From positions 22,687-86,686 of the forward strand of contig JAPOYL010000009.1 of the NCBI GenBank assembly GCA_026706595.1: 64,000 bases of DNA, read 5' to 3'. Made by a program: the position numbers and the translations under genes. Within the stretch, counting starts at the first letter, position 1; each line of letters begins with the position of its first letter. Below the pieces are notes generated by a model. The model did not search any database, was not told where the DNA came from, and saw only the letters and a program-made list of their open reading frames with translations. Of this stretch, positions 16,569 to 56,399 are shown one piece after another. Source of the stretch: Gammaproteobacteria bacterium (GTDB lineage Bacteria; Pseudomonadota; Gammaproteobacteria; UBA4575).

Positions 16569-17432
16569 TCAGCTAGCGACTGCAGCCTTAAGCGCCTGGA
16601 TGGCGTTGCTTTCCAACTGGCGTATGCGCTCTGCCGAAACCTTGTACTTGGCAGCCAGGTCCTGCAGGGTGGAGCGCTTCTCACTCAACCAGCGCTGCGT
16701 GATGATGTCCCGGCTACGCTCATCCAGCACGGTCAGTGCGGCTTGCAGTTGCCGTACCTGATGGGATTCCCAGTCCTCATGTTCAATCTGCAGTTCAGGG
16801 TTGTCTTCTTCATGGCTTAGGTAGGCCGCCGGTGCAAAGTGACCGGGCTCATCCTTGTGCTCATCATGATCCTGGTCAAAACCGAGGTCGTGACTGCTGA
16901 GCCGCTTTTCCATCTCCACCACTTCACTGCGCTTGACGCCCAGTTCCTTGGCTACCGTATCCACCTCATCCTGATTCAGCCAGGCCAGGCGTTTCTTGGA
17001 GTTGCGCAAGTTGAAAAACAGCTTGCGCTGGGCCTTGGTGGTTGCAACTTTGACAATGCGCCAGTTGCGCAGTACGAACTCATGAATCTCGGCACGAATC
17101 CAGTGCACCGCAAACGAGACCAGGCGCACACCCTTGTGCGGGTTGAAGCGGTTGACGGCCTTCATCAGCCCGACATTGCCTTCCTGGACCAGATCCGCAA
17201 GCGGCAGACCATATCCCAGGTAGCCGCGCGCCACATGAATCACGAACCGCAGGTTGTGAATGATCAGAGTGCGTGCCGCATCCAGATCGTTATCTTCATA
17301 CAGGCGCAGCGCCAGGGCATGCTCCTCTTCCATGCTCAGCACCGGAATCTGCAGCGTCGAGGCGATGTAGCCGTCCAGGTTGGCGGTGGAAATCGCCGTT
17401 GAAGCTTGCAAGGGTTGTATGGTGGTCGTCAC
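16569..17432 (-). CDS. rpoH: RNA polymerase sigma-32 (heat-shock sigma factor)
   Basis: RpoH box 'QRKLFFNLR', region 2 'LIIHNLRFVIHVARGY', and a GTG start preceded by a GGAGAA RBS. Confidence 0.93.
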   Translation of the reverse strand: MTTTIQPLQASTAISTANLDGYIASTLQIPVLSMEEEHALALRLYEDNDLDAARTLIIHNLRFVIHVARGYLGYGLPLADLVQEGNVGLMKAVNRFNPHKGVRLVSFAVHWIRAEIHEFVLRNWRIVKVATTKAQRKLFFNLRNSKKRLAWLNQDEVDTVAKELGVKRSEVVEMEKRLSSHDLGFDQDHDEHKDEPGHFAPAAYLSHEEDNPELQIEHEDWESHQVRQLQAALTVLDERSRDIITQRWLSEKRSTLQDLAAKYKVSAERIRQLESNAIQALKAAVAS

Positions 17433-17486: not shown

Positions 17487-17513
17487 TTAGCACTCTTTTA
17501 TATAGAGTGCTAA
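17487..17513. promoter_or_regulatory. CIRCE operator (HrcA-binding inverted repeat) upstream of rpoH
   Basis: An exact TTAGCACTC-N9-GAGTGCTAA, 55 bp upstream of the rpoH GTG. Confidence 0.8.
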
Positions 17514-17516
17514 TAT

Positions 17517-17524
17517 TTTTAGTT
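17517..17524. repeat. Target-site duplication, left copy (TTTTAGTT)
   Basis: An identical octamer lies immediately outside both inverted repeats (the other copy is at 21113..21120). Confidence 0.75.
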
Positions 17525-17550
17525 GGGGCTTATATACGTAAGTTACCGGA
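17525..17550. repeat. Left terminal inverted repeat GGGGCTTATATACGTAAGTTACCGGA
   Basis: Matches the reverse complement of 21087..21112. Subterminal partial copies occur at 17735..17745 and 17786..17795. Confidence 0.75.
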
Positions 17551-17935
17551 TTCTGAGCAGTTTTCCCTACCTGAACTCGGGTTCCATGCTGTCGCCCAGG
17601 ACGCGCAGGGCAAACGGTTCCGAATTGGCGCACCCGCCATGATCGGCGAGGTCAGCCTGTAGACCGCGAACAAGTACTGCCATCGTATCCGGACCCTCGG
17701 TGCCTCATTAAAAAATTTTATCAATAATTTTTTGTTTATAAGCTCTGGGTATTCTTGGGGCATTTGGAAAAAATACTAAGATTTCAAGCTTATATGATTT
17801 TGCCCACTTCTTGTGTTCGGAGTCTGGCATCCACACAATCCATTGTGTACAATCACTGCCATACGCATTGCGTAATCGACCAACAAAAAGCGAGGAAAAC
17901 GTCATGGAGCAAATGATTCAAAGTGAGGTGGAAAA

Positions 17936-18044
17936 GCGCCGGTAGCTAAAGAGGCATAAGCACATACTGGCGTGGCGTTCAATTCCCGTCAGGCATGGTC
18001 GTAGCACTAGCTGCGTGCCGGTTCGAGTCCGGTCCGGCGCACCA
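17936..18044 (+). other. tRNA/tmRNA 3'-end-like element (T-arm GGTTCGAGTCC, 7-nt acceptor strand, discriminator A, CCA); not a complete tRNA
   Basis: The T-stem-loop 18017..18033 and acceptor 3' strand 18034..18040 could pair with GCGCCGG at 17936..17942. The 109-nt span cannot be folded into a canonical cloverleaf. Confidence 0.3.
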
Positions 18045-18077
18045 TCTTACAAAAATTCAAATCTGAACGAAGACACA

Positions 18078-18218
18078 TCAAGTCTTCTTTCTTTTCCCAG
18101 CAGCAAAGATCGCCTTTGCTACATATTCAGGACTTTCATCAATCTTCAGAACACGGGTTTTCGGTCTGCCACGTGGCAGTTTTTCCTGTGCAGTCTTCTT
18201 TGGATTAGTCTTACCCAT
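18078..18218 (-). CDS. AT-hook micro-protein (46 aa), paralog 1
   Basis: '...LPRGRPKTRVLKIDESPEYVAKAIFAAGKRKKT'. It shares the RGRP...SPE(Y/N)(V/I)AKAI(F/M) core with 18774..18965. Confidence 0.5.
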   Translation of the reverse strand: MGKTNPKKTAQEKLPRGRPKTRVLKIDESPEYVAKAIFAAGKRKKT

Positions 18219-18320
18219 TAAAAAGAAGTATAGGGTTTTAGTCTGTGTTAGTAAATTGGCTAATTGATTGGCATCGCATGATTATCTATGCTTGTCTATA
18301 GTTTCCTACTAGGACATAAA

Positions 18321-18515
18321 ATGGATAAAAGTAATTTAAATAATCTAGATGGTGAGTTGAACGCTCTAGCTGATTTCATAGTCAACTTTGTCGGAGTCTC
18401 AGGTCTAAAAATTCAAATGATCCAAAAGCTCAAATCTGGCTTAACGAAAGATGTTAAAGGTACAGACTATGAAGCTAGGTTGCAGTATTTCATAAAACAA
18501 TTAGAAAAACTCTGA
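18321..18515 (+). CDS. Hypothetical small helical protein
   Basis: An ORF in AT-rich cargo DNA with no recognisable motif. Confidence 0.25.
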   Translation: MDKSNLNNLDGELNALADFIVNFVGVSGLKIQMIQKLKSGLTKDVKGTDYEARLQYFIKQLEKL

Positions 18516-18773
18516 CGCATCTTATTTGGGAAATATAAAGATTAGGGGTTTATATACTTGTTTACCTATCGGACTAATGCTTCTGGGATCTTTCCCACAC
18601 AACTCCTTCTTTTCTACAAATCCTTTTAATGTCTCTTCCTTTCATCTGTAAAAAATGCACTCCTTCCTTTTGTTTTTAATATTGCCAATAATTCGCTATT
18701 AAGTTATTTCCATAGTGATTACCACTTCAACTGTATCTTCTGGACTATAAGTTTCTTCCACAAGTTTCTCCTT

Positions 18774-18965
18774 TCAATCCTCTTTCAGATAATCCCAGTC
18801 TTTCTTCGGAGACCCCTTCATAATTGCCTTGGCAATGTTCTCCGGGCTGTCTGGCACTTTAGGAGGCATTTTCTTGGTCACAGGCCGACCCCGCTTGTGA
18901 GCCTTTACCTTCAATGTCTTTTTGCCTTTAACCTGCTTCATCTCTATACTTTCCTCTAACGACAT
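18774..18965 (-). CDS. AT-hook micro-protein (63 aa), paralog 2
   Basis: '...KAHKRGRPVTKKMPPKVPDSPENIAKAIMKG...'. It is Lys-rich. Confidence 0.55.
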   Translation of the reverse strand: MSLEESIEMKQVKGKKTLKVKAHKRGRPVTKKMPPKVPDSPENIAKAIMKGSPKKDWDYLKED

Positions 18966-19124
18966 TCATGTAGATACCCTGGTCGGGTTATCTGCTTAAT
19001 ACAATAGCCATTTACGCATCAGGGTAGCTCCCTGATGTTTGGTAAAGAGGCGGAACCTCTCCGTACTTCTACGTGGATGTCGTATGACCCGGCACCATGC
19101 ACGTAACAAAAAGGAGAGGTGGTC

Positions 19125-19424
19125 ATGCGTTCTTTCAATATTCTCGTCATTTCAATTCTCATAAGCGGGTGTGCTACTAGCAATTATTTCGTTGCCACTG
19201 GCAGTCGCGCGGATGGAACGGTTGAGGTGGCCTGCAACTACGACATGTTTAATATTTGCAAACACGATGGGAGTCCCAATGGATCCAGCGCAGCCGGTCA
19301 AGCTTGCCGAAGTTGGGGATATGACGGTGCCCGCTCTTTTGGAGGTTATACCAACCAACCTAGATATGACGGTACAGGCCAGGTAAGAATCCTGTACCAG
19401 TGTTATGGTGATCCTGAGAAGTAA
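19125..19424 (+). CDS. Small lipoprotein (Cys-rich, about 100 aa)
   Basis: Signal peptide plus lipobox 'LISGC', with an AAGGAGAG RBS 8 nt upstream of the ATG. Confidence 0.6.
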   Translation: MRSFNILVISILISGCATSNYFVATGSRADGTVEVACNYDMFNICKHDGSPNGSSAAGQACRSWGYDGARSFGGYTNQPRYDGTGQVRILYQCYGDPEK

Positions 19425-19434
19425 GGGGAGAAAC

Positions 19435-19608
19435 ATGGAATACATCATCCCTTACCTTTTTGCCTTTGGCCTTTGTGGTTTGCTGGCTTTTGCAATACAG
19501 GGAGAAAATTCTGAAGGGAAAGGATTAGCCTTTGCCTTGGGATTTCTGTTTGGACCTTTAGGAATTCTCATTGTGTTGATCACGAAACTAGCAAAGACAA
19601 AGAAATAA
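19435..19608 (+). CDS. Two-helix mini membrane protein (57 aa)
   Basis: 'MEYIIPYLFAFGLCGLLAFAIQG...GFLFGPLGILIVLITKLAKTKK'. An AGGGGAG RBS follows immediately after the lipoprotein stop. Confidence 0.5.
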   Translation: MEYIIPYLFAFGLCGLLAFAIQGENSEGKGLAFALGFLFGPLGILIVLITKLAKTKK

Positions 19609-19657
19609 AAACTCATGCCACTCTGATAACATAGCCAAAATTAATTAGGAAATCTTG

Positions 19658-19987
19658 ATGACAGAAAATCCCTCAAAACCCCAATCAGTTCGAGCTCAAA
19701 AGCATGCTGCTTCTCCAGAACATTCTGAAAGTCGACTTCGACATGTGAAGGGATTTGATTTGTATCAGGCAGACAATACAGAGTCCTATGTCCTAGATTT
19801 TCACTTTCATACTTTACAGAATTATCCTGCAGACGAAATGACAACCCTTGTGGGAGATCATTTTCCTCAAATTTTGGAAAGGAAGGATCTTCAGAAGCTT
19901 GCCTATAAAATTCTAAAGACATTGCGAGAAGAGCTTCAAGCTCCTGTCGAGAAGTGGAACGATGATATTGATTCCTTGAAGATTTAA
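19658..19987 (+). CDS. Hypothetical protein (about 109 aa). A fully overlapping 133-aa antisense ORF (19641..20042) is an alternative.
   Basis: An AGGAAA RBS lies 7 nt upstream of the ATG. The call is ambiguous between strands. Confidence 0.35.
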   Translation: MTENPSKPQSVRAQKHAASPEHSESRLRHVKGFDLYQADNTESYVLDFHFHTLQNYPADEMTTLVGDHFPQILERKDLQKLAYKILKTLREELQAPVEKWNDDIDSLKI

Positions 19988-20022
19988 AGGATTCAAAATT
20001 AATAATATTGTTGTTATTCACC

Positions 20023-20958
20023 CTAAGACACCAATTCCTCATACTTCAACCGCTTGCCTTCCATGCGCTTGGCAACAAACGCCATCTGGCGGATTGTATC
20101 CAGCTCCCTGATATTGAAGCGTCCTGCGAACTCCTGCACATAGCGATTCAGGTGCTTTTTGCTGATGTGATGATACGTGCCGTGGTACCCACGCTTGAGT
20201 AGTGCCCAGAAGGACTCGATGCCGTTGGTGTGGGCCATGCCCCTCACAAACTCACTGGTAGAATGTCGGACGGCCCTGTGGTCATAGCGTTTGTATAGTT
20301 GCATGTAAGCCCGATTATCGTCTGTGATCAGTGTGGCCTCTGGGTCCATGTTCTCGGCAATAAACTTGTGCAGCGTGTACGCCGTGGTGTCTTCGGCAGT
20401 CTTGGCCCGAATCTCTTTACTGTCTCTGCACTTCATACCGACCACAATTGCCTTGTCCGTAGCTCCTCGTCCCTTGAGAGTCTTGCGCTTGGCATTGTGC
20501 ATGTTCTTTCGCTTTCCACCCATGTAGGTCTCATCCACTTCCACAGTGCCTCGCAGAAGCCCATCGCCTTCATCAAAGGCCTCCCGAATGCGTTGTAGCA
20601 TGTACCAGGCTGACTTCTGGGTTATTCCGAGTTCCCGACTCAGCTTCATGCTGGAAATGCCCTTGAGATTAGTGGTCGCCATGTAGATCGCGATCACCCA
20701 GTGTTGGAGCTTGATCTTGGAACCTTCCATGACCGACCCTTTTTTGACGCTGAAGAATTGCCGGCAATCACGGCAGCGATAACGCATGGTCTTGTGGGTC
20801 GTATGGGTGTGGTTGACAGACCCGCAATCAGGACAGACCGGACCATCAGGCCAACGCTGCTCCTCAAGCCATTGCTCAGCAGTCCTGTCATCAGGGAACA
20901 TCTGAAGCAGCTCAATGATTGTAATCCCTTTCCGGTGTGACTTGCCTGGACCTGCCAT
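20023..20958 (-). CDS. IS1595-family (ISXO2-like) DDE transposase
   Basis: An N-terminal zinc ribbon 'PDGPVCPDCGS...YRCRDCRQFFSV', then 'KGISSMKLSRELGITQKSAWYMLQRIR' and a DDE domain (311 aa). Confidence 0.85.
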   Translation of the reverse strand: MAGPGKSHRKGITIIELLQMFPDDRTAEQWLEEQRWPDGPVCPDCGSVNHTHTTHKTMRYRCRDCRQFFSVKKGSVMEGSKIKLQHWVIAIYMATTNLKGISSMKLSRELGITQKSAWYMLQRIREAFDEGDGLLRGTVEVDETYMGGKRKNMHNAKRKTLKGRGATDKAIVVGMKCRDSKEIRAKTAEDTTAYTLHKFIAENMDPEATLITDDNRAYMQLYKRYDHRAVRHSTSEFVRGMAHTNGIESFWALLKRGYHGTYHHISKKHLNRYVQEFAGRFNIRELDTIRQMAFVAKRMEGKRLKYEELVS

Positions 20959-21086
20959 TCCTACATCTTGATCAGTTGATTATTCATGGTAACTATTCTA
21001 CCGGAAAACAGTGCGAAAGTAAAGGGTTTACCGATAGAAATATATATTACGATAGGTATATCCTATGTAGGCTGTTAGAAAAGACT

Positions 21087-21112
21087 CTCGGTAACTTTTG
21101 TATATAAGCTCC
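21087..21112. repeat. Right terminal inverted repeat (reverse complement GGAGCTTATATACAAAAGTTACCGAG)
   Basis: See the left inverted repeat. Confidence 0.75.
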
Positions 21113-21120
21113 TTTTAGTT
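21113..21120. repeat. Target-site duplication, right copy (TTTTAGTT)
   Basis: See the left copy. Confidence 0.75.
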
Positions 21121-21260: not shown

Positions 21261-22229
21261 TCAGCTGGGTTCAATCCGCACGATATGGCGTCCGACGGCC
21301 AGCCATGAACCCAGCAGTCCCAGCACGATGCTGGTCGCGATCAGGGCCAGGCCCTGCCTGAGATCCGGAAAAATCAGCTCGAAATTGCTGTTGTACAGAC
21401 CAATCAGGTGCTGTGCGGGCGCTTCGATGACGTACAGCACGAGCAGCACCAGCAACAGCGCCAGGCTCCCCCCCAGCAGGCCATACCACATACCGCCATA
21501 CAGGAAAGGCCTTCGCACGAAGCGGTTGGTCGCGCCGATCAGCTTGGCGACCTCGATTTCCTCGCGTCGATTCTCGATGTCCAGGCGGATGCTGTTGCCG
21601 ACCACCAGTAGCACGGAAATAGCCAGCGTGATGCCCAGTATCGTGATCGCACGGTGCACCACCTCGGTGATGGCCTGCAGTCGCTGCAGCCATTGCAGGT
21701 CGAGTTGTACATGCTCGACCTGCGGGTAGGTGCCAAGATCCTGCACCAGCCGGTCCAGTTGACCGGCCTGCTTGGCTTGCTCAAACGGGATCAGGGTCAG
21801 GGTGGGCGGCAGTGGATTTTCCTCCAGCCCTTCGATCAGGTATTCGAGCCTGCTGAATTTTCGAAACTCCGTCAGGGCCTGTTGGGCAGAAACGTACTTG
21901 ATGTTCTCGATCTCCTTGAGTTCGGCCAGGCGGGTGCGAAGTGCCTCGATCTCGGCTTCGCTGCTGTTCACGTTCAAGAACAGCGTGATTTGTCCGGAGT
22001 CGTCCCATTTCTCGGTAACCGCCTGCAGGTTGTCCAACAACAGGTACATGCAGGCCGGCAGCGCCAGGGCCACGGCGATCATCAGGATGGTCAGCGTCGA
22101 CGCGAACGGGTGGCGGTACAGCTTGCCGAGGCTGAACACCAGGCTACGCAGATGCTCACGCACCAGAGCGCGAAAGCGTGTCAGGGAGTTGGGTCGGTTC
22201 GGGATTGGTCTGCGTGTGGATGCCTGCAT
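21261..22229 (-). CDS. ftsX: Cell-division ABC transporter permease FtsX
   Basis: Four TM segments and a periplasmic loop, downstream of ftsE. Confidence 0.85.
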   Translation of the reverse strand: MQASTRRPIPNRPNSLTRFRALVREHLRSLVFSLGKLYRHPFASTLTILMIAVALALPACMYLLLDNLQAVTEKWDDSGQITLFLNVNSSEAEIEALRTRLAELKEIENIKYVSAQQALTEFRKFSRLEYLIEGLEENPLPPTLTLIPFEQAKQAGQLDRLVQDLGTYPQVEHVQLDLQWLQRLQAITEVVHRAITILGITLAISVLLVVGNSIRLDIENRREEIEVAKLIGATNRFVRRPFLYGGMWYGLLGGSLALLLVLLVLYVIEAPAQHLIGLYNSNFELIFPDLRQGLALIATSIVLGLLGSWLAVGRHIVRIEPS

Positions 22230-22266
22230 GTTCCTGTCAAGGTCTGTACTGCCGTGTCACCTGCCA

Positions 22267-22938
22267 TCAGGCCAGCTGTGCCTGTCCGTTGATACATTGT
22301 CCACCTTGCAGGCGGATGATTCGTTTACCCAGGCGTGAAATCAGGTCCAGGTCATGACTGGCCACAAGCACGGTGACGCCGACCTGGTTAAACTCGGAAA
22401 AGAGCTGCATGATTTCGGCCGATAATCCCGGGTCCAGGTTGCCGGTCGGTTCGTCGGCCAGCAAAATCGCCGGTTTGTGGACTACTGCACGTGCAATCCC
22501 GACACGCTGCTGTTCCCCCCCAGACAATGTGATAGGCATGGCCTTTTCCCTGTTCAGCAATGCCACCTTGTCCAGGGCGGCCCGCACCCGGCGCCTGATC
22601 TCGGCCCGCGCATAACCAGCGATCTGCAGCGGCAGCGACACATTGTCGAAGACGCTACGGTCATATAGCAAATGATGATCCTGGAACACGATCCCCATGA
22701 ATCTTCGCAAGTTGGGAATCTTGCGCTTGGGAATCTGCGTGATATTTTTCTGGTTGATCAAGATCCGGCCCCGGGTCGGACGCTCGATGGCCGCAATGAG
22801 TTTCAGCAGGGTGCTCTTGCCTGCTCCCGATGGCCCGGTGAGAAATGCCATTTCACCACGTTCGAGCACCAGGTCCAGTTGCGTCAGGGCTTCACGGTTT
22901 CCCGGGTATCGTTTGGTTACGTTCTGCAACTCGATCAT
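22267..22938 (-). CDS. ftsE: Cell-division ATP-binding protein FtsE
   Basis: Walker A 'GPSGAGKST', ABC signature 'LSGGEQQR' and Walker B 'LLADEPTGNLD'. Confidence 0.92.
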   Translation of the reverse strand: MIELQNVTKRYPGNREALTQLDLVLERGEMAFLTGPSGAGKSTLLKLIAAIERPTRGRILINQKNITQIPKRKIPNLRRFMGIVFQDHHLLYDRSVFDNVSLPLQIAGYARAEIRRRVRAALDKVALLNREKAMPITLSGGEQQRVGIARAVVHKPAILLADEPTGNLDPGLSAEIMQLFSEFNQVGVTVLVASHDLDLISRLGKRIIRLQGGQCINGQAQLA

Positions 22939-22965
22939 CGGTCCGTGCCTGACTCCAGTTCCGGC

Positions 22966-23883
22966 CTAGGCATGCAACAGGGCCTCGGCATACCGGTAGG
23001 CATCAAATACGCGCAGGTCCTCGATGCCCTCGCCCACACCAATATAGCGGATTGGAATCTCCAGCCTGTCTGCGATGGCAATGATGGTTCCACCCTTGGC
23101 CGTACCATCCAGCTTGGTCACGCACAGGCCGGTGAGGTTCAGTGCCTCGTGAAAGCCGAGCGCCTGCTTCAGGGCATTTTGTCCGGTGCCGGCTTCCAGC
23201 ACCAGCAGGATCTCATGCGGTGCCTCGGGGTCGATTTTTTGCATGGCCCGCTTGATCTTGAGCAGTTCATCCATCAGGTTCTGCTGGGTATGCAGCCGCC
23301 CGGCAGTATCTGCGATCAGCACGTCGATGCCGCGGGCCTTCGCAGACTGATATGCATCGAATACGACAGCCGCACTGTCGGCGCCGCTTTTTTGTGCCAC
23401 CACGGGCACCTCGATTTTCTTACCCCAGGATTGCAACTGTTCGACCGCCGCCGCCCGAAAGGTATCCCCAGCAGCCAGCAACACGGTCTGATCCTGTTCG
23501 ACCAGGCGGTGGGCGATCTTGCCGATGGTGGTGGTCTTGCCGGCACCATTGATACCGACGACCAGAATGGTGAAAGGCTTGCTGCCACGGGTCAGCAGGG
23601 GCTTGTTGCAGGCTGACATGATCTCCGCGAGGCTTTCCTGCAGCAGTGCATCCGCCCCCTGGGTCTTTCCGCTGTGCTTGCGACGCAGGCGTGATTTCAG
23701 GTCGTCGATGATCCGGGCAGTCGTATCGATTCCTACATCGGCGAGCAGCAAACGGTCTTCCAGTTCAGCAAGCAGGGCCTCACTGTTGTCCCGCCACGCA
23801 GCCGCAGGGATGCCAGCGGTCAGCGCATTCCTGGTCTTTTGCAGGCCCTGGCGCAGGCGCGAAAAAACTCCGGTTTCAGGCAT
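22966..23883 (-). CDS. ftsY: Signal recognition particle receptor FtsY (short form)
   Basis: An NG domain with 'GVNGAGKTTTIGK' and 'DTAGR'. Confidence 0.92.
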   Translation of the reverse strand: MPETGVFSRLRQGLQKTRNALTAGIPAAAWRDNSEALLAELEDRLLLADVGIDTTARIIDDLKSRLRRKHSGKTQGADALLQESLAEIMSACNKPLLTRGSKPFTILVVGINGAGKTTTIGKIAHRLVEQDQTVLLAAGDTFRAAAVEQLQSWGKKIEVPVVAQKSGADSAAVVFDAYQSAKARGIDVLIADTAGRLHTQQNLMDELLKIKRAMQKIDPEAPHEILLVLEAGTGQNALKQALGFHEALNLTGLCVTKLDGTAKGGTIIAIADRLEIPIRYIGVGEGIEDLRVFDAYRYAEALLHA

Positions 23884-56372: not shown

Positions 56373-56399
56373 TTAGCACTCCCCACAAAAGAGTGCTAA
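56373..56399. promoter_or_regulatory. CIRCE operator (HrcA site) of groESL
   Basis: An exact TTAGCACTC-N9-GAGTGCTAA, 79 bp upstream of the groES ATG. Confidence 0.9.

Follow-up and report, generated by a model that had tools for sequence, protein, structure and literature searches.

What lies between ftsX and rpoH in a lineage of uncultured gammaproteobacteria, and how did it come to stand there? The question is raised by a 64,000-bp stretch of contig JAPOYL010000009.1 (assembly GCA_026706595.1, a metagenome bin), in which these two host genes are held apart by several kilobases of DNA whose composition differs from that of its surroundings. This whole stretch is referred to here as the window, and coordinates without another label are positions in it; L001 to L033 are comparison loci and P0128 and P0153 are database proteins. 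Our results make it very probable that positions 17525 to 21112 are a single 3,588-bp insertion of an IS1595-family insertion sequence (IS), and one of the kind known as a transporter IS, i.e., an IS with passenger DNA between its ends.

The ends of the insertion and its target-site duplication can be read directly in the DNA. One terminal inverted repeat (IR_B, GGGGCTTATATACGTAAGTTACCGGA) lies far from the transposase gene, at 17525-17550 on the plus strand, and the other (IR_A, reverse complement GGAGCTTATATACAAAAGTTACCGAG) adjoins the transposase gene, at 21087-21112 on the minus strand. The two are identical at 21 of 24 positions (21 of 26 over the full 26 bp; a repeat finder reports 24 nt at 88%). 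A search of the window for the 24-mer with at most three mismatches finds two sites, both of them the outer ends, where shuffled sequences give an expectation of 0.00, and IR_B differs at 2 of 25 positions from the end consensus GGGGCTTATATACAAAAGTTACCGG common to three related elements (L025, L026 and L033). Directly abutting the repeats are two copies of the octamer TTTTAGTT, both in direct orientation, the rpoH-side copy at 17517-17524 and the ftsX-side copy at 21113-21120. An earlier interpretation made from the letters of the window without database searches, here called the sequence-only reading, had placed imperfect 26-bp inverted repeats and identical octamers at these positions, and all of these coordinates recount correctly. 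Its description of the interval as an AT-rich block holds for the average, which is 44.8% G+C against 57-59% in the flanks, but not throughout, as two patches (17551-17700 and 17936-18044) reach 61-62%. All that the duplication proves by itself is which ends served in the most recent transposition, those at 17525 and 21112.

Between these ends, on the minus strand at 20023-20958, is an intact gene for an IS1595-family transposase of 311 amino acids. Its product matches DDE_Tnp_IS1595 (PF12762) at 4e-41 over positions 2-153 of the 153 in the model, Zn_ribbon_IS1595 (PF12760) at 4.3e-11 and the NCBIfam model NF033547 at 2.4e-57, with 194 bits against a cut-off of 75. The protein is full length in an alignment with 12 relatives, in which it is aligned from residue 1 onward; across the 13 sequences the zinc-ribbon cysteines C42, C45, C62 and C65 are invariant, as are D142, D213, E248 and R256, K255 is nearly so, and the window protein also keeps E276 and R280. 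By their position, D142, D213 and E248, together with K255, are the probable catalytic residues. The public annotation gives the transposase as 235 amino acids, starting at residue 77 and thus omitting the zinc ribbon; the full 311-residue frame is open, and the shorter call is an annotation error. An N-terminal zinc ribbon is absent only from the IS1016 group of the IS1595 family. The region upstream of the gene (20959-21086, minus strand) contains a promoter-like TTTACT-17-TAGAAT at 21023-20995, and the motif TAGAATAGTTACC also occurs upstream of the transposase gene in L025, L026, L028 and L029. The element shares with the family a DDE_Tnp_IS1595 core with an N-terminal zinc ribbon, a single transposase frame, ends that begin with GG and an 8-bp duplication, the last being typical of IS1595 elements, whose features have been summarized previously (PMC8101967). 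All the defining features of the family that can be read from sequence are present. The assignment that the sequence-only reading had based on GG ends and an 8-bp duplication is therefore borne out by ends, duplication and transposase domains alike, and the Pfam and NCBIfam matches agree with its statement that the only transposase in the block is of the IS1595 type. The element is unlike the family norm in its length, 3.6 kb against about 0.7-1.2 kb, and in that the nearest database transposase is only 72% identical.

A recent insertion should have left relatives without it, and these were found. A scan for FtsX in species-representative genomes gave 21 related loci, all of them from bins of uncultured gammaproteobacteria, in which complete chromosomes, where present, measure about 1.8-2.8 Mb. 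The bin names of the nearest relatives point to a possible origin from a marine sponge. In the window, ftsX (21261-22229, minus strand; FtsX and FtsX_ECD domains) is the host gene upstream of the insertion and forms with ftsE and ftsY a minus-strand group at 21261-23883; rpoH (16569-17432, minus strand; Sigma70_r2 and r4 domains) is the host gene downstream and shares 86-98% identity with the gene found next after ftsX in the closest relatives. Two sister genomes, L004 (VXPJ01000084) and L005 (OZ242174), encode FtsX proteins with 98% identity and have an ftsX-rpoH spacer of about 230 bp, with a single AACTAAAA—the same octamer as TTTTAGTT—exactly at the insertion junction (...GAATTTAAA(G/C)AACTAAAAATATTAGCACTC...). 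Deletion of 17525-21120, i.e., the element and one octamer, makes the window colinear with both. The empty site with one octamer that had been predicted for close relatives is thus found in L004 and L005, and removal of the element does restore the ancestral ftsYEX-rpoH arrangement. The further statement that this unit had been split is correct insofar as the element lies between ftsX and rpoH; the insertion is intergenic, however, and no gene is broken. The spacer between ftsX and rpoH measures 150-240 bp in the nine closest loci, and a transposase gene is found at the ftsX locus in none of the 21 relatives, 17 of which have rpoH on the locus. Exact 28-mer scans of metagenome and genome collections for the reconstructed empty junction gave no match, because L004 and L005 each carry one base change beside the octamer. 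The insertion postdates the split from the sister lineages with 98% identical FtsX.

As the source is a metagenome bin, it might be argued that mis-assembly has joined the insertion sequence of another organism into this scaffold. The G+C content of the element, which is unlike that of the host, would fit such an origin, as would short-read contigs that end inside the element. Both junctions are, however, present in an independent assembly: one short-read contig (L001) extends from rpoH across the first 88 bp of the element (17525-17612), and another (L003) extends from ftsX across about 900 bp of it, to transposase codon 249 (about 20212). A second full assembly of the same sample (L002) has the whole interior, with 2 base differences in 3.9 kb, and a perfect duplication of a host octamer that is single in the sister genomes surrounds the block. 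With both junctions in independent contigs and a matching interior in L002, a chimeric assembly is very unlikely, and we regard mis-assembly as a highly improbable explanation of the locus. The two differences between L002 and the window, at 18153 and 18161, are both in ORF46, a small open reading frame (ORF) described below, and one of them changes a lysine codon to a stop in L002; this suggests population polymorphism or decay of this copy of ORF46. The positions of the contig breaks, within the element and not at its ends, hint that the community contains related sequence in other places or that its strains vary.

Eight related elements provide the context in which the anatomy of the insertion can be judged. 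Five were found around the nearest transposases (L025, L026, L028, L029 and L030) and three (L031 to L033) were reached independently through a small protein. They measure 2,371-4,301 bp, their transposases are 59-72% identical to that of the window, the closest homologues that we found, and the ends of all eight conform to GGG(G/A)(C/A)TTATATA..AGTTACC. Perfect AT-rich 8-bp duplications flank five of the eight (TTATTTTA twice, TATCGATT, ATTAAATA and TAATTTTA). The relatives carry as cargo N6/N4 DNA methyltransferases, a YafQ-like toxin, DUF4145, an HpuA-like protein of 674 amino acids and unknown ORFs. In four of them the methyltransferase gene is directly downstream of the transposase gene and on the same strand (L025 6927-8246, L030 7861-9085, L031 3804-4808 and L033 3315-4988); a nuclease domain, HNH or Mrr, is likewise present in three of these four enzymes, the exception being that of L031. 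The clade is marked by the common end type, the zinc-ribbon transposase, a small outward-reading gene with an RGRP motif at the distal end and variable cargo, an architecture conserved across its members. The sequence-only reading had taken the window element to be an oversized, cargo-carrying transposon, which it is; since relatives with such ends measure 2.4-4.3 kb, a large size is normal here, and size and cargo are the rule in the clade and not a peculiarity of the window. L026 and L028 also share an identical target octamer, TTATTTTA. Plasmid-borne relatives of the transposase are 42-45% identical at best (all below 46% in the plasmid collection) and carry generic names only, and the end sequence was not found when viral contigs were scanned for it. 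One match to the end sequence in metagenomes of the Joint Genome Institute lay on a contig without long ORFs or any other feature of the element and was set aside as a chance match.

The small gene deserves separate consideration. It encodes 41-60 amino acids, adjoins the distal end in all eight related elements and reads outward, its stop codon lying 5-40 bp from the end that is far from the transposase gene (e.g., L025 8256-8387 and L026 about 2700-2830; copies are also present in L028 to L033). The products are basic and have the consensus ..KRGRPETRVLKID.SPEY.AKAIFAAGK..., i.e., RGRP..LKID.SPEY.AKAIFAAGK. A profile search recovered 218 homologues, all annotated only as hypothetical proteins and none with a Pfam domain of its own, and three of three homologues picked blind for long contigs were encoded 1-2 kb downstream of an IS1595 transposase gene. 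Against Pfam, NCBIfam, PHROGs and PADLOC the family gave only a sub-threshold AT-hook signal. An AlphaFold model consists of an extended basic segment followed by one helix (residues 30-40), with a predicted local distance difference test score of 73 and a predicted template modeling score of 0.33, which is too little fold to support a structure search. We infer that the protein is probably a DNA-binding accessory factor or cofactor acting at the AT-rich end. One database protein, P0153 (76 amino acids, on a 1.7-kb contig), has the first 30 or so residues of an IS1595 transposase, with a part of the zinc ribbon, fused to the small basic protein and looks like an internal-deletion, non-autonomous derivative.

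Measured against its relatives, the window copy has a disordered interior. ORF46, its small gene (18078-18218, minus strand), is 80% identical over 30 amino acids to the L025 copy, and transposase, both outer ends and ORF46 are all of one type (L025/L033-like); the distance from ORF46 to the outer end is 528 bp, however, against the 5-40 bp seen in relatives. Three things lie in this gap. Just inside the left end is a GC-rich (61%) fragment of a gene for a peptidase S24, LexA/repressor-like protein (17567-17683, minus strand), which ends ...FALRVLGDSMEPEFR* with GDSMEPEFR as the C terminus; its match to PF00717 is weak (E = 0.035, below the cut-off), and it is called as a 38-amino-acid gene in the other assembly. 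This fragment could be captured host or prophage DNA. Next, at 17936-18044 on the plus strand, comes a tRNA-like sequence with a CCA end, a long variable arm and an abnormal anticodon arm, which scores 32.9 bits against Rfam RF00005 (gathering score 29) with a 39-nt insertion; ARAGORN at default settings reports none and calls it only with an 18-nt "intron" or a lowered threshold. Finally, 18045-18066 (minus strand) directly follows the ORF46 stop codon and abuts the 3' end of the tRNA-like sequence, and a by-eye comparison with five relatives suggests that it may be the truncated inner half of an older end. tRNA or tRNA-like genes are also found between the proximal end and the transposase gene in L028 (3552-3625) and L029 (5577-5670 and 5845-5918), so that such passengers recur in three of nine elements, and several of them have enlarged or abnormal anticodon loops. 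Outside the element of L029, in a phage-like region at 1254-1328, there is a tRNA-like gene whose anticodon loop has one base more than the model (Rfam, 33.4 bits), and the L028 element lies 42 bp from a tRNA-Asn gene (L028 6409-6527).

Beyond ORF46 the interior contains further parts. An ORF of 64 amino acids (18321-18515, plus strand; 75 amino acids if started from the ATG at 18288), present in the ORF list and in the gene calls for L002 and otherwise unannotated, has no family match in Pfam, NCBIfam, PHROGs or PADLOC. It is followed by a third end-like sequence at 18545-18570 (plus strand, GGGGTTTATATACTTGTTTACCTATC, repeat family D5; GGGGTTTATATAC at 18545), which has the orientation of IR_B and was absent from the sequence-only reading; no 8-bp repeat pairs this internal end with 21113-21120. 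ORF63 (18774-18965, minus strand), a second small basic protein gene, heads toward the internal end, and its product, annotated as hypothetical protein OXG06_02095 (P0128), is 40-48% identical to that of ORF46 and to the copies in relatives. Then follow, all on the plus strand, a gene for a YecR-like lipoprotein (19125-19424) with a signal peptide, a lipobox (ISGC), a Pfam match above the cut-off (PF13992, 2.9e-8) and 215 representative homologues; an ORF for a small predicted membrane protein (19435-19608), taken from the ORF list and with a weak match to a PHROG membrane protein (E = 0.0019); and an orphan ORF of 109 amino acids (ORF109, 19658-19987), whose sole database match is itself and for which no homologue and no family was found in Pfam, NCBIfam, PHROGs or PADLOC. 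The cargo ORFs as a group have no match in NCBIfam or PADLOC and one weak match in PHROGs, that of the small membrane protein. The sequence-only reading had counted at least five ORFs besides the transposase. The ORFs are there, but to treat them all as functional cargo is an overstatement, since homologues were found only for the YecR-like lipoprotein and the small basic protein. Some of the supposed cargo is probably debris, namely the internal end, the second small gene, the candidate truncated end, the tRNA-like sequence and the peptidase S24 fragment.

We consider it most likely that this mosaic was built by nested or adjacent insertion of related elements, with ORF63 and the end at 18545 as the probable relic of the right end of a more divergent relative. 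In such a scheme, related elements would first have inserted into or beside one another, and transposition from the outermost compatible pair of ends would then have swept the intervening DNA into the element. Very probably, the element's own DDE transposase recognized both terminal inverted repeats and inserted the whole into the octamer TTTTAGTT of the ftsX-rpoH spacer, where repair of an 8-bp staggered cut duplicated the octamer. The alternative is a transposon of single origin, in which the entire interior consists of genuine, co-selected passengers and the internal end and second small gene result from duplication or coincidence. Such an origin would fit the sole duplication at the outer ends, the cargo of several kilobases that relatives likewise hold and the YecR-like gene, which belongs to a real, conserved family and has its own conserved RNA-like block upstream. 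It sits poorly, however, with the divergence of ORF63 and the 18545 end from the clade consensus, which is far greater than that of ORF46 and the outer ends, and with the gene fragment and tRNA-like sequence that intervene between ORF46 and the outer end, a small-gene stop codon lying 5-40 bp from the end in eight of eight relatives and 528 bp from it here. The orphan status of ORF109 and the patchy G+C content also speak against it, and we think a single origin unlikely. Two other explanations were weighed. The 3' end of a tRNA-like sequence and a repressor-like peptidase fragment within the block could recall a small genomic island that entered through a site-specific recombinase at a tRNA-like attachment site; the ORFs include no integrase or recombinase, however, the tRNA-like sequence is internal and not a boundary, and the block is bounded by transposase ends that an 8-bp duplication flanks. 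This anatomy refutes such an island, to which we assign a negligible probability. A composite transposon with two complete flanking IS copies was likewise rejected, as there is a single transposase gene and the other end-like modules are without one.

Several observations weigh against a transporter IS insertion with a mosaic interior. IR_A and IR_B mismatch at 3 of 24 positions, and the candidate truncated end at 18045-18066 is a short AT-rich match only. None of the related elements contains a homologue of the left arm (17551-17935), the origin of which is therefore unproven; tblastx of 17525-18100 against eight related elements found nothing beyond the ends, because of which the likeness of this arm to the proximal arm of an L028/L029-type element is now one of layout, an end followed by a tRNA-like sequence. 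The transposase is a singleton: an exact-protein look-up found no identical copy on record, the nearest homologue is 72% identical and no second copy of the exact element is known, so that its activity is deduced from one insertion. The same-sample short-read contigs stop inside the element, at 17612 and about 20212, and internal repeats or strain variation must therefore exist. Finally, L025, L030 and L031 lack clean duplications.

A non-coding feature also recurs among these elements. The block at 18945-19124 (plus strand) has an RNA-like core at 18982-19096, which precedes the yecR-like gene by 29 nt. A stretch of L028 shares about 70% identity with the block, and nhmmer also recovers it from L026, L032 and L029 (L028 5801-5990, L026 5640-5819, L032 4672-4776 and L029 7774-7895). 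It always lies between the small gene and a cargo gene that is antisense to the transposase gene. On the cargo strand, the copies in L029 and L032 match the Rfam family sRNA-Xcc1 (RF02221) at 35.2 and 30.4 bits, respectively, below the gathering score of 53. The window copy, which has an extra hairpin, gives no Rfam hit because about 30 nt are inserted in one hairpin, and its link to sRNA-Xcc1 is through nhmmer only. All five copies have in common GUCGGG...AAUACAAUAGCC...CCCGGCACC and two stems, and one closing pair varies as U-G, U-A or C-G among them; as there are only five sequences, this covariation is thin support. sRNA-Xcc1 is an RNA of integron cassettes, transposons, plasmids and phages that has been reported upstream of symE in integron cassettes (bioRxiv 10.1101/2025.06.18.660453) and upstream of an accessory ORF6N gene in an APSE phage. 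The window block is like it in the shared motif and in its place 5' of a variable accessory gene, here that of the YecR-like lipoprotein, but unlike it in that no copy in an element reaches the Rfam gathering score.

How does the element compare with systems that have been described? The name transporter IS (tIS) is in use for IS1595 elements that carry passenger genes (PMC3129680, PMC11891212), and passenger-carrying members were, according to papers that cite this work, already described when the family was defined by Siguier et al. in 2009 (cited in PMC3129680, PMC11891212 and PMC4611040). As in ISNha5 and the passenger-carrying members of the ISNwi1 group, the passengers of the window element—the operon of the YecR-like lipoprotein and other ORFs—lie inside the repeats, an arrangement in which the whole moves as a unit. 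In the ISfinder family table, the ISNwi1 group has ends of the form ggnnatTAT and a DDEK motif that is followed downstream by E-x3-R, and its members with passengers measure 1.75-4.75 kb. The window element, with its ends GGGGCTTAT and GGGGATTAT and its residues E248, K255 and E276-R280, is consistent with this description and may belong to the group. We know of no published description of a transporter IS that includes a distal small gene, an sRNA-Xcc1-like block or an internal relic end. In ISEcp1-type capture and in nested-IS composites, an outer alternative end is used and the intervening DNA is mobilized. The growth of cargo proposed here is similar and would be expected to leave scars such as the end at 18545 and the candidate truncated end at 18045-18066; unlike in ISEcp1, the outer end here is a good copy of the family end and not a weak surrogate, and the process is read from anatomy alone. 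It is possible, although we hold the idea only tentatively, that the element and its eight relatives form a coherent, undescribed subgroup of transporter IS with a fixed three-part layout, in which cargo accretes by nested insertion and end switching. The parts would be the transposase, the RGRP-motif protein as an end-binding cofactor or outward promoter, and an sRNA-Xcc1-like RNA, which would head a variable cargo slot in about half of the members.

The position of the insertion with respect to rpoH remains to be considered. A perfect controlling inverted repeat of chaperone expression (CIRCE), the operator of HrcA, is present upstream of rpoH at 17487-17513 (TTAGCACTC-N9-GAGTGCTAA, with the consensus as in PMC545781), only 3 bp from the insertion, and such an operator in front of rpoH is also known from Geobacter sulfurreducens (PMC545781). 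A second perfect CIRCE in the window, at 56373-56399, precedes groES-groEL (chance expectation, 0.02). The operator of rpoH is kept in 10 of 10 aligned relatives, so that HrcA appears to control sigma-32 in this lineage. The octamer that was duplicated lies within a block that is conserved in relatives down to 81% FtsX identity, and the upstream part of this block is therefore now 3.6 kb from rpoH. These observations raise the question of whether the insertion was neutral. The CIRCE and rpoH have been parted from the upstream block, and outward-reading ORF46 now lies upstream; rpoH transcription could thereby have been rewired and the insertion retained for this reason. Besides the proximity of a perfect CIRCE and the conservation of the block around the octamer, the small gene shares its strand with rpoH, and the sample itself yielded no contig with an empty site. 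However, consensus promoter scans of the filled and of the empty site both failed to locate a sigma-70-type promoter for rpoH, and AT-rich octamers are the general target of the clade, so that target preference alone can explain the position. We therefore judge retention through rewiring to be quite improbable, while some effect of the insertion on the expression of rpoH is possible.

In summary, a transporter IS has landed cleanly and datably in a regulatory spacer whose empty site is preserved in sister genomes. As a single event the insertion is of little weight, being of an ordinary, well-documented kind, and transporter IS are already known. What is worth following is the small conserved protein, the sRNA-Xcc1-like block and the position next to a CIRCE. 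The small protein, with its 218 homologues, travels with a subset of IS1595 transposases and is a candidate cofactor of transposition. The recurrence of an sRNA-Xcc1-like RNA ahead of variable cargo links an RNA of integron cassettes and phages to insertion sequences. With an insertion 3 bp from the HrcA operator of rpoH, the host lineage is a natural experiment on the coupling of the HrcA/CIRCE and sigma-32 circuits.

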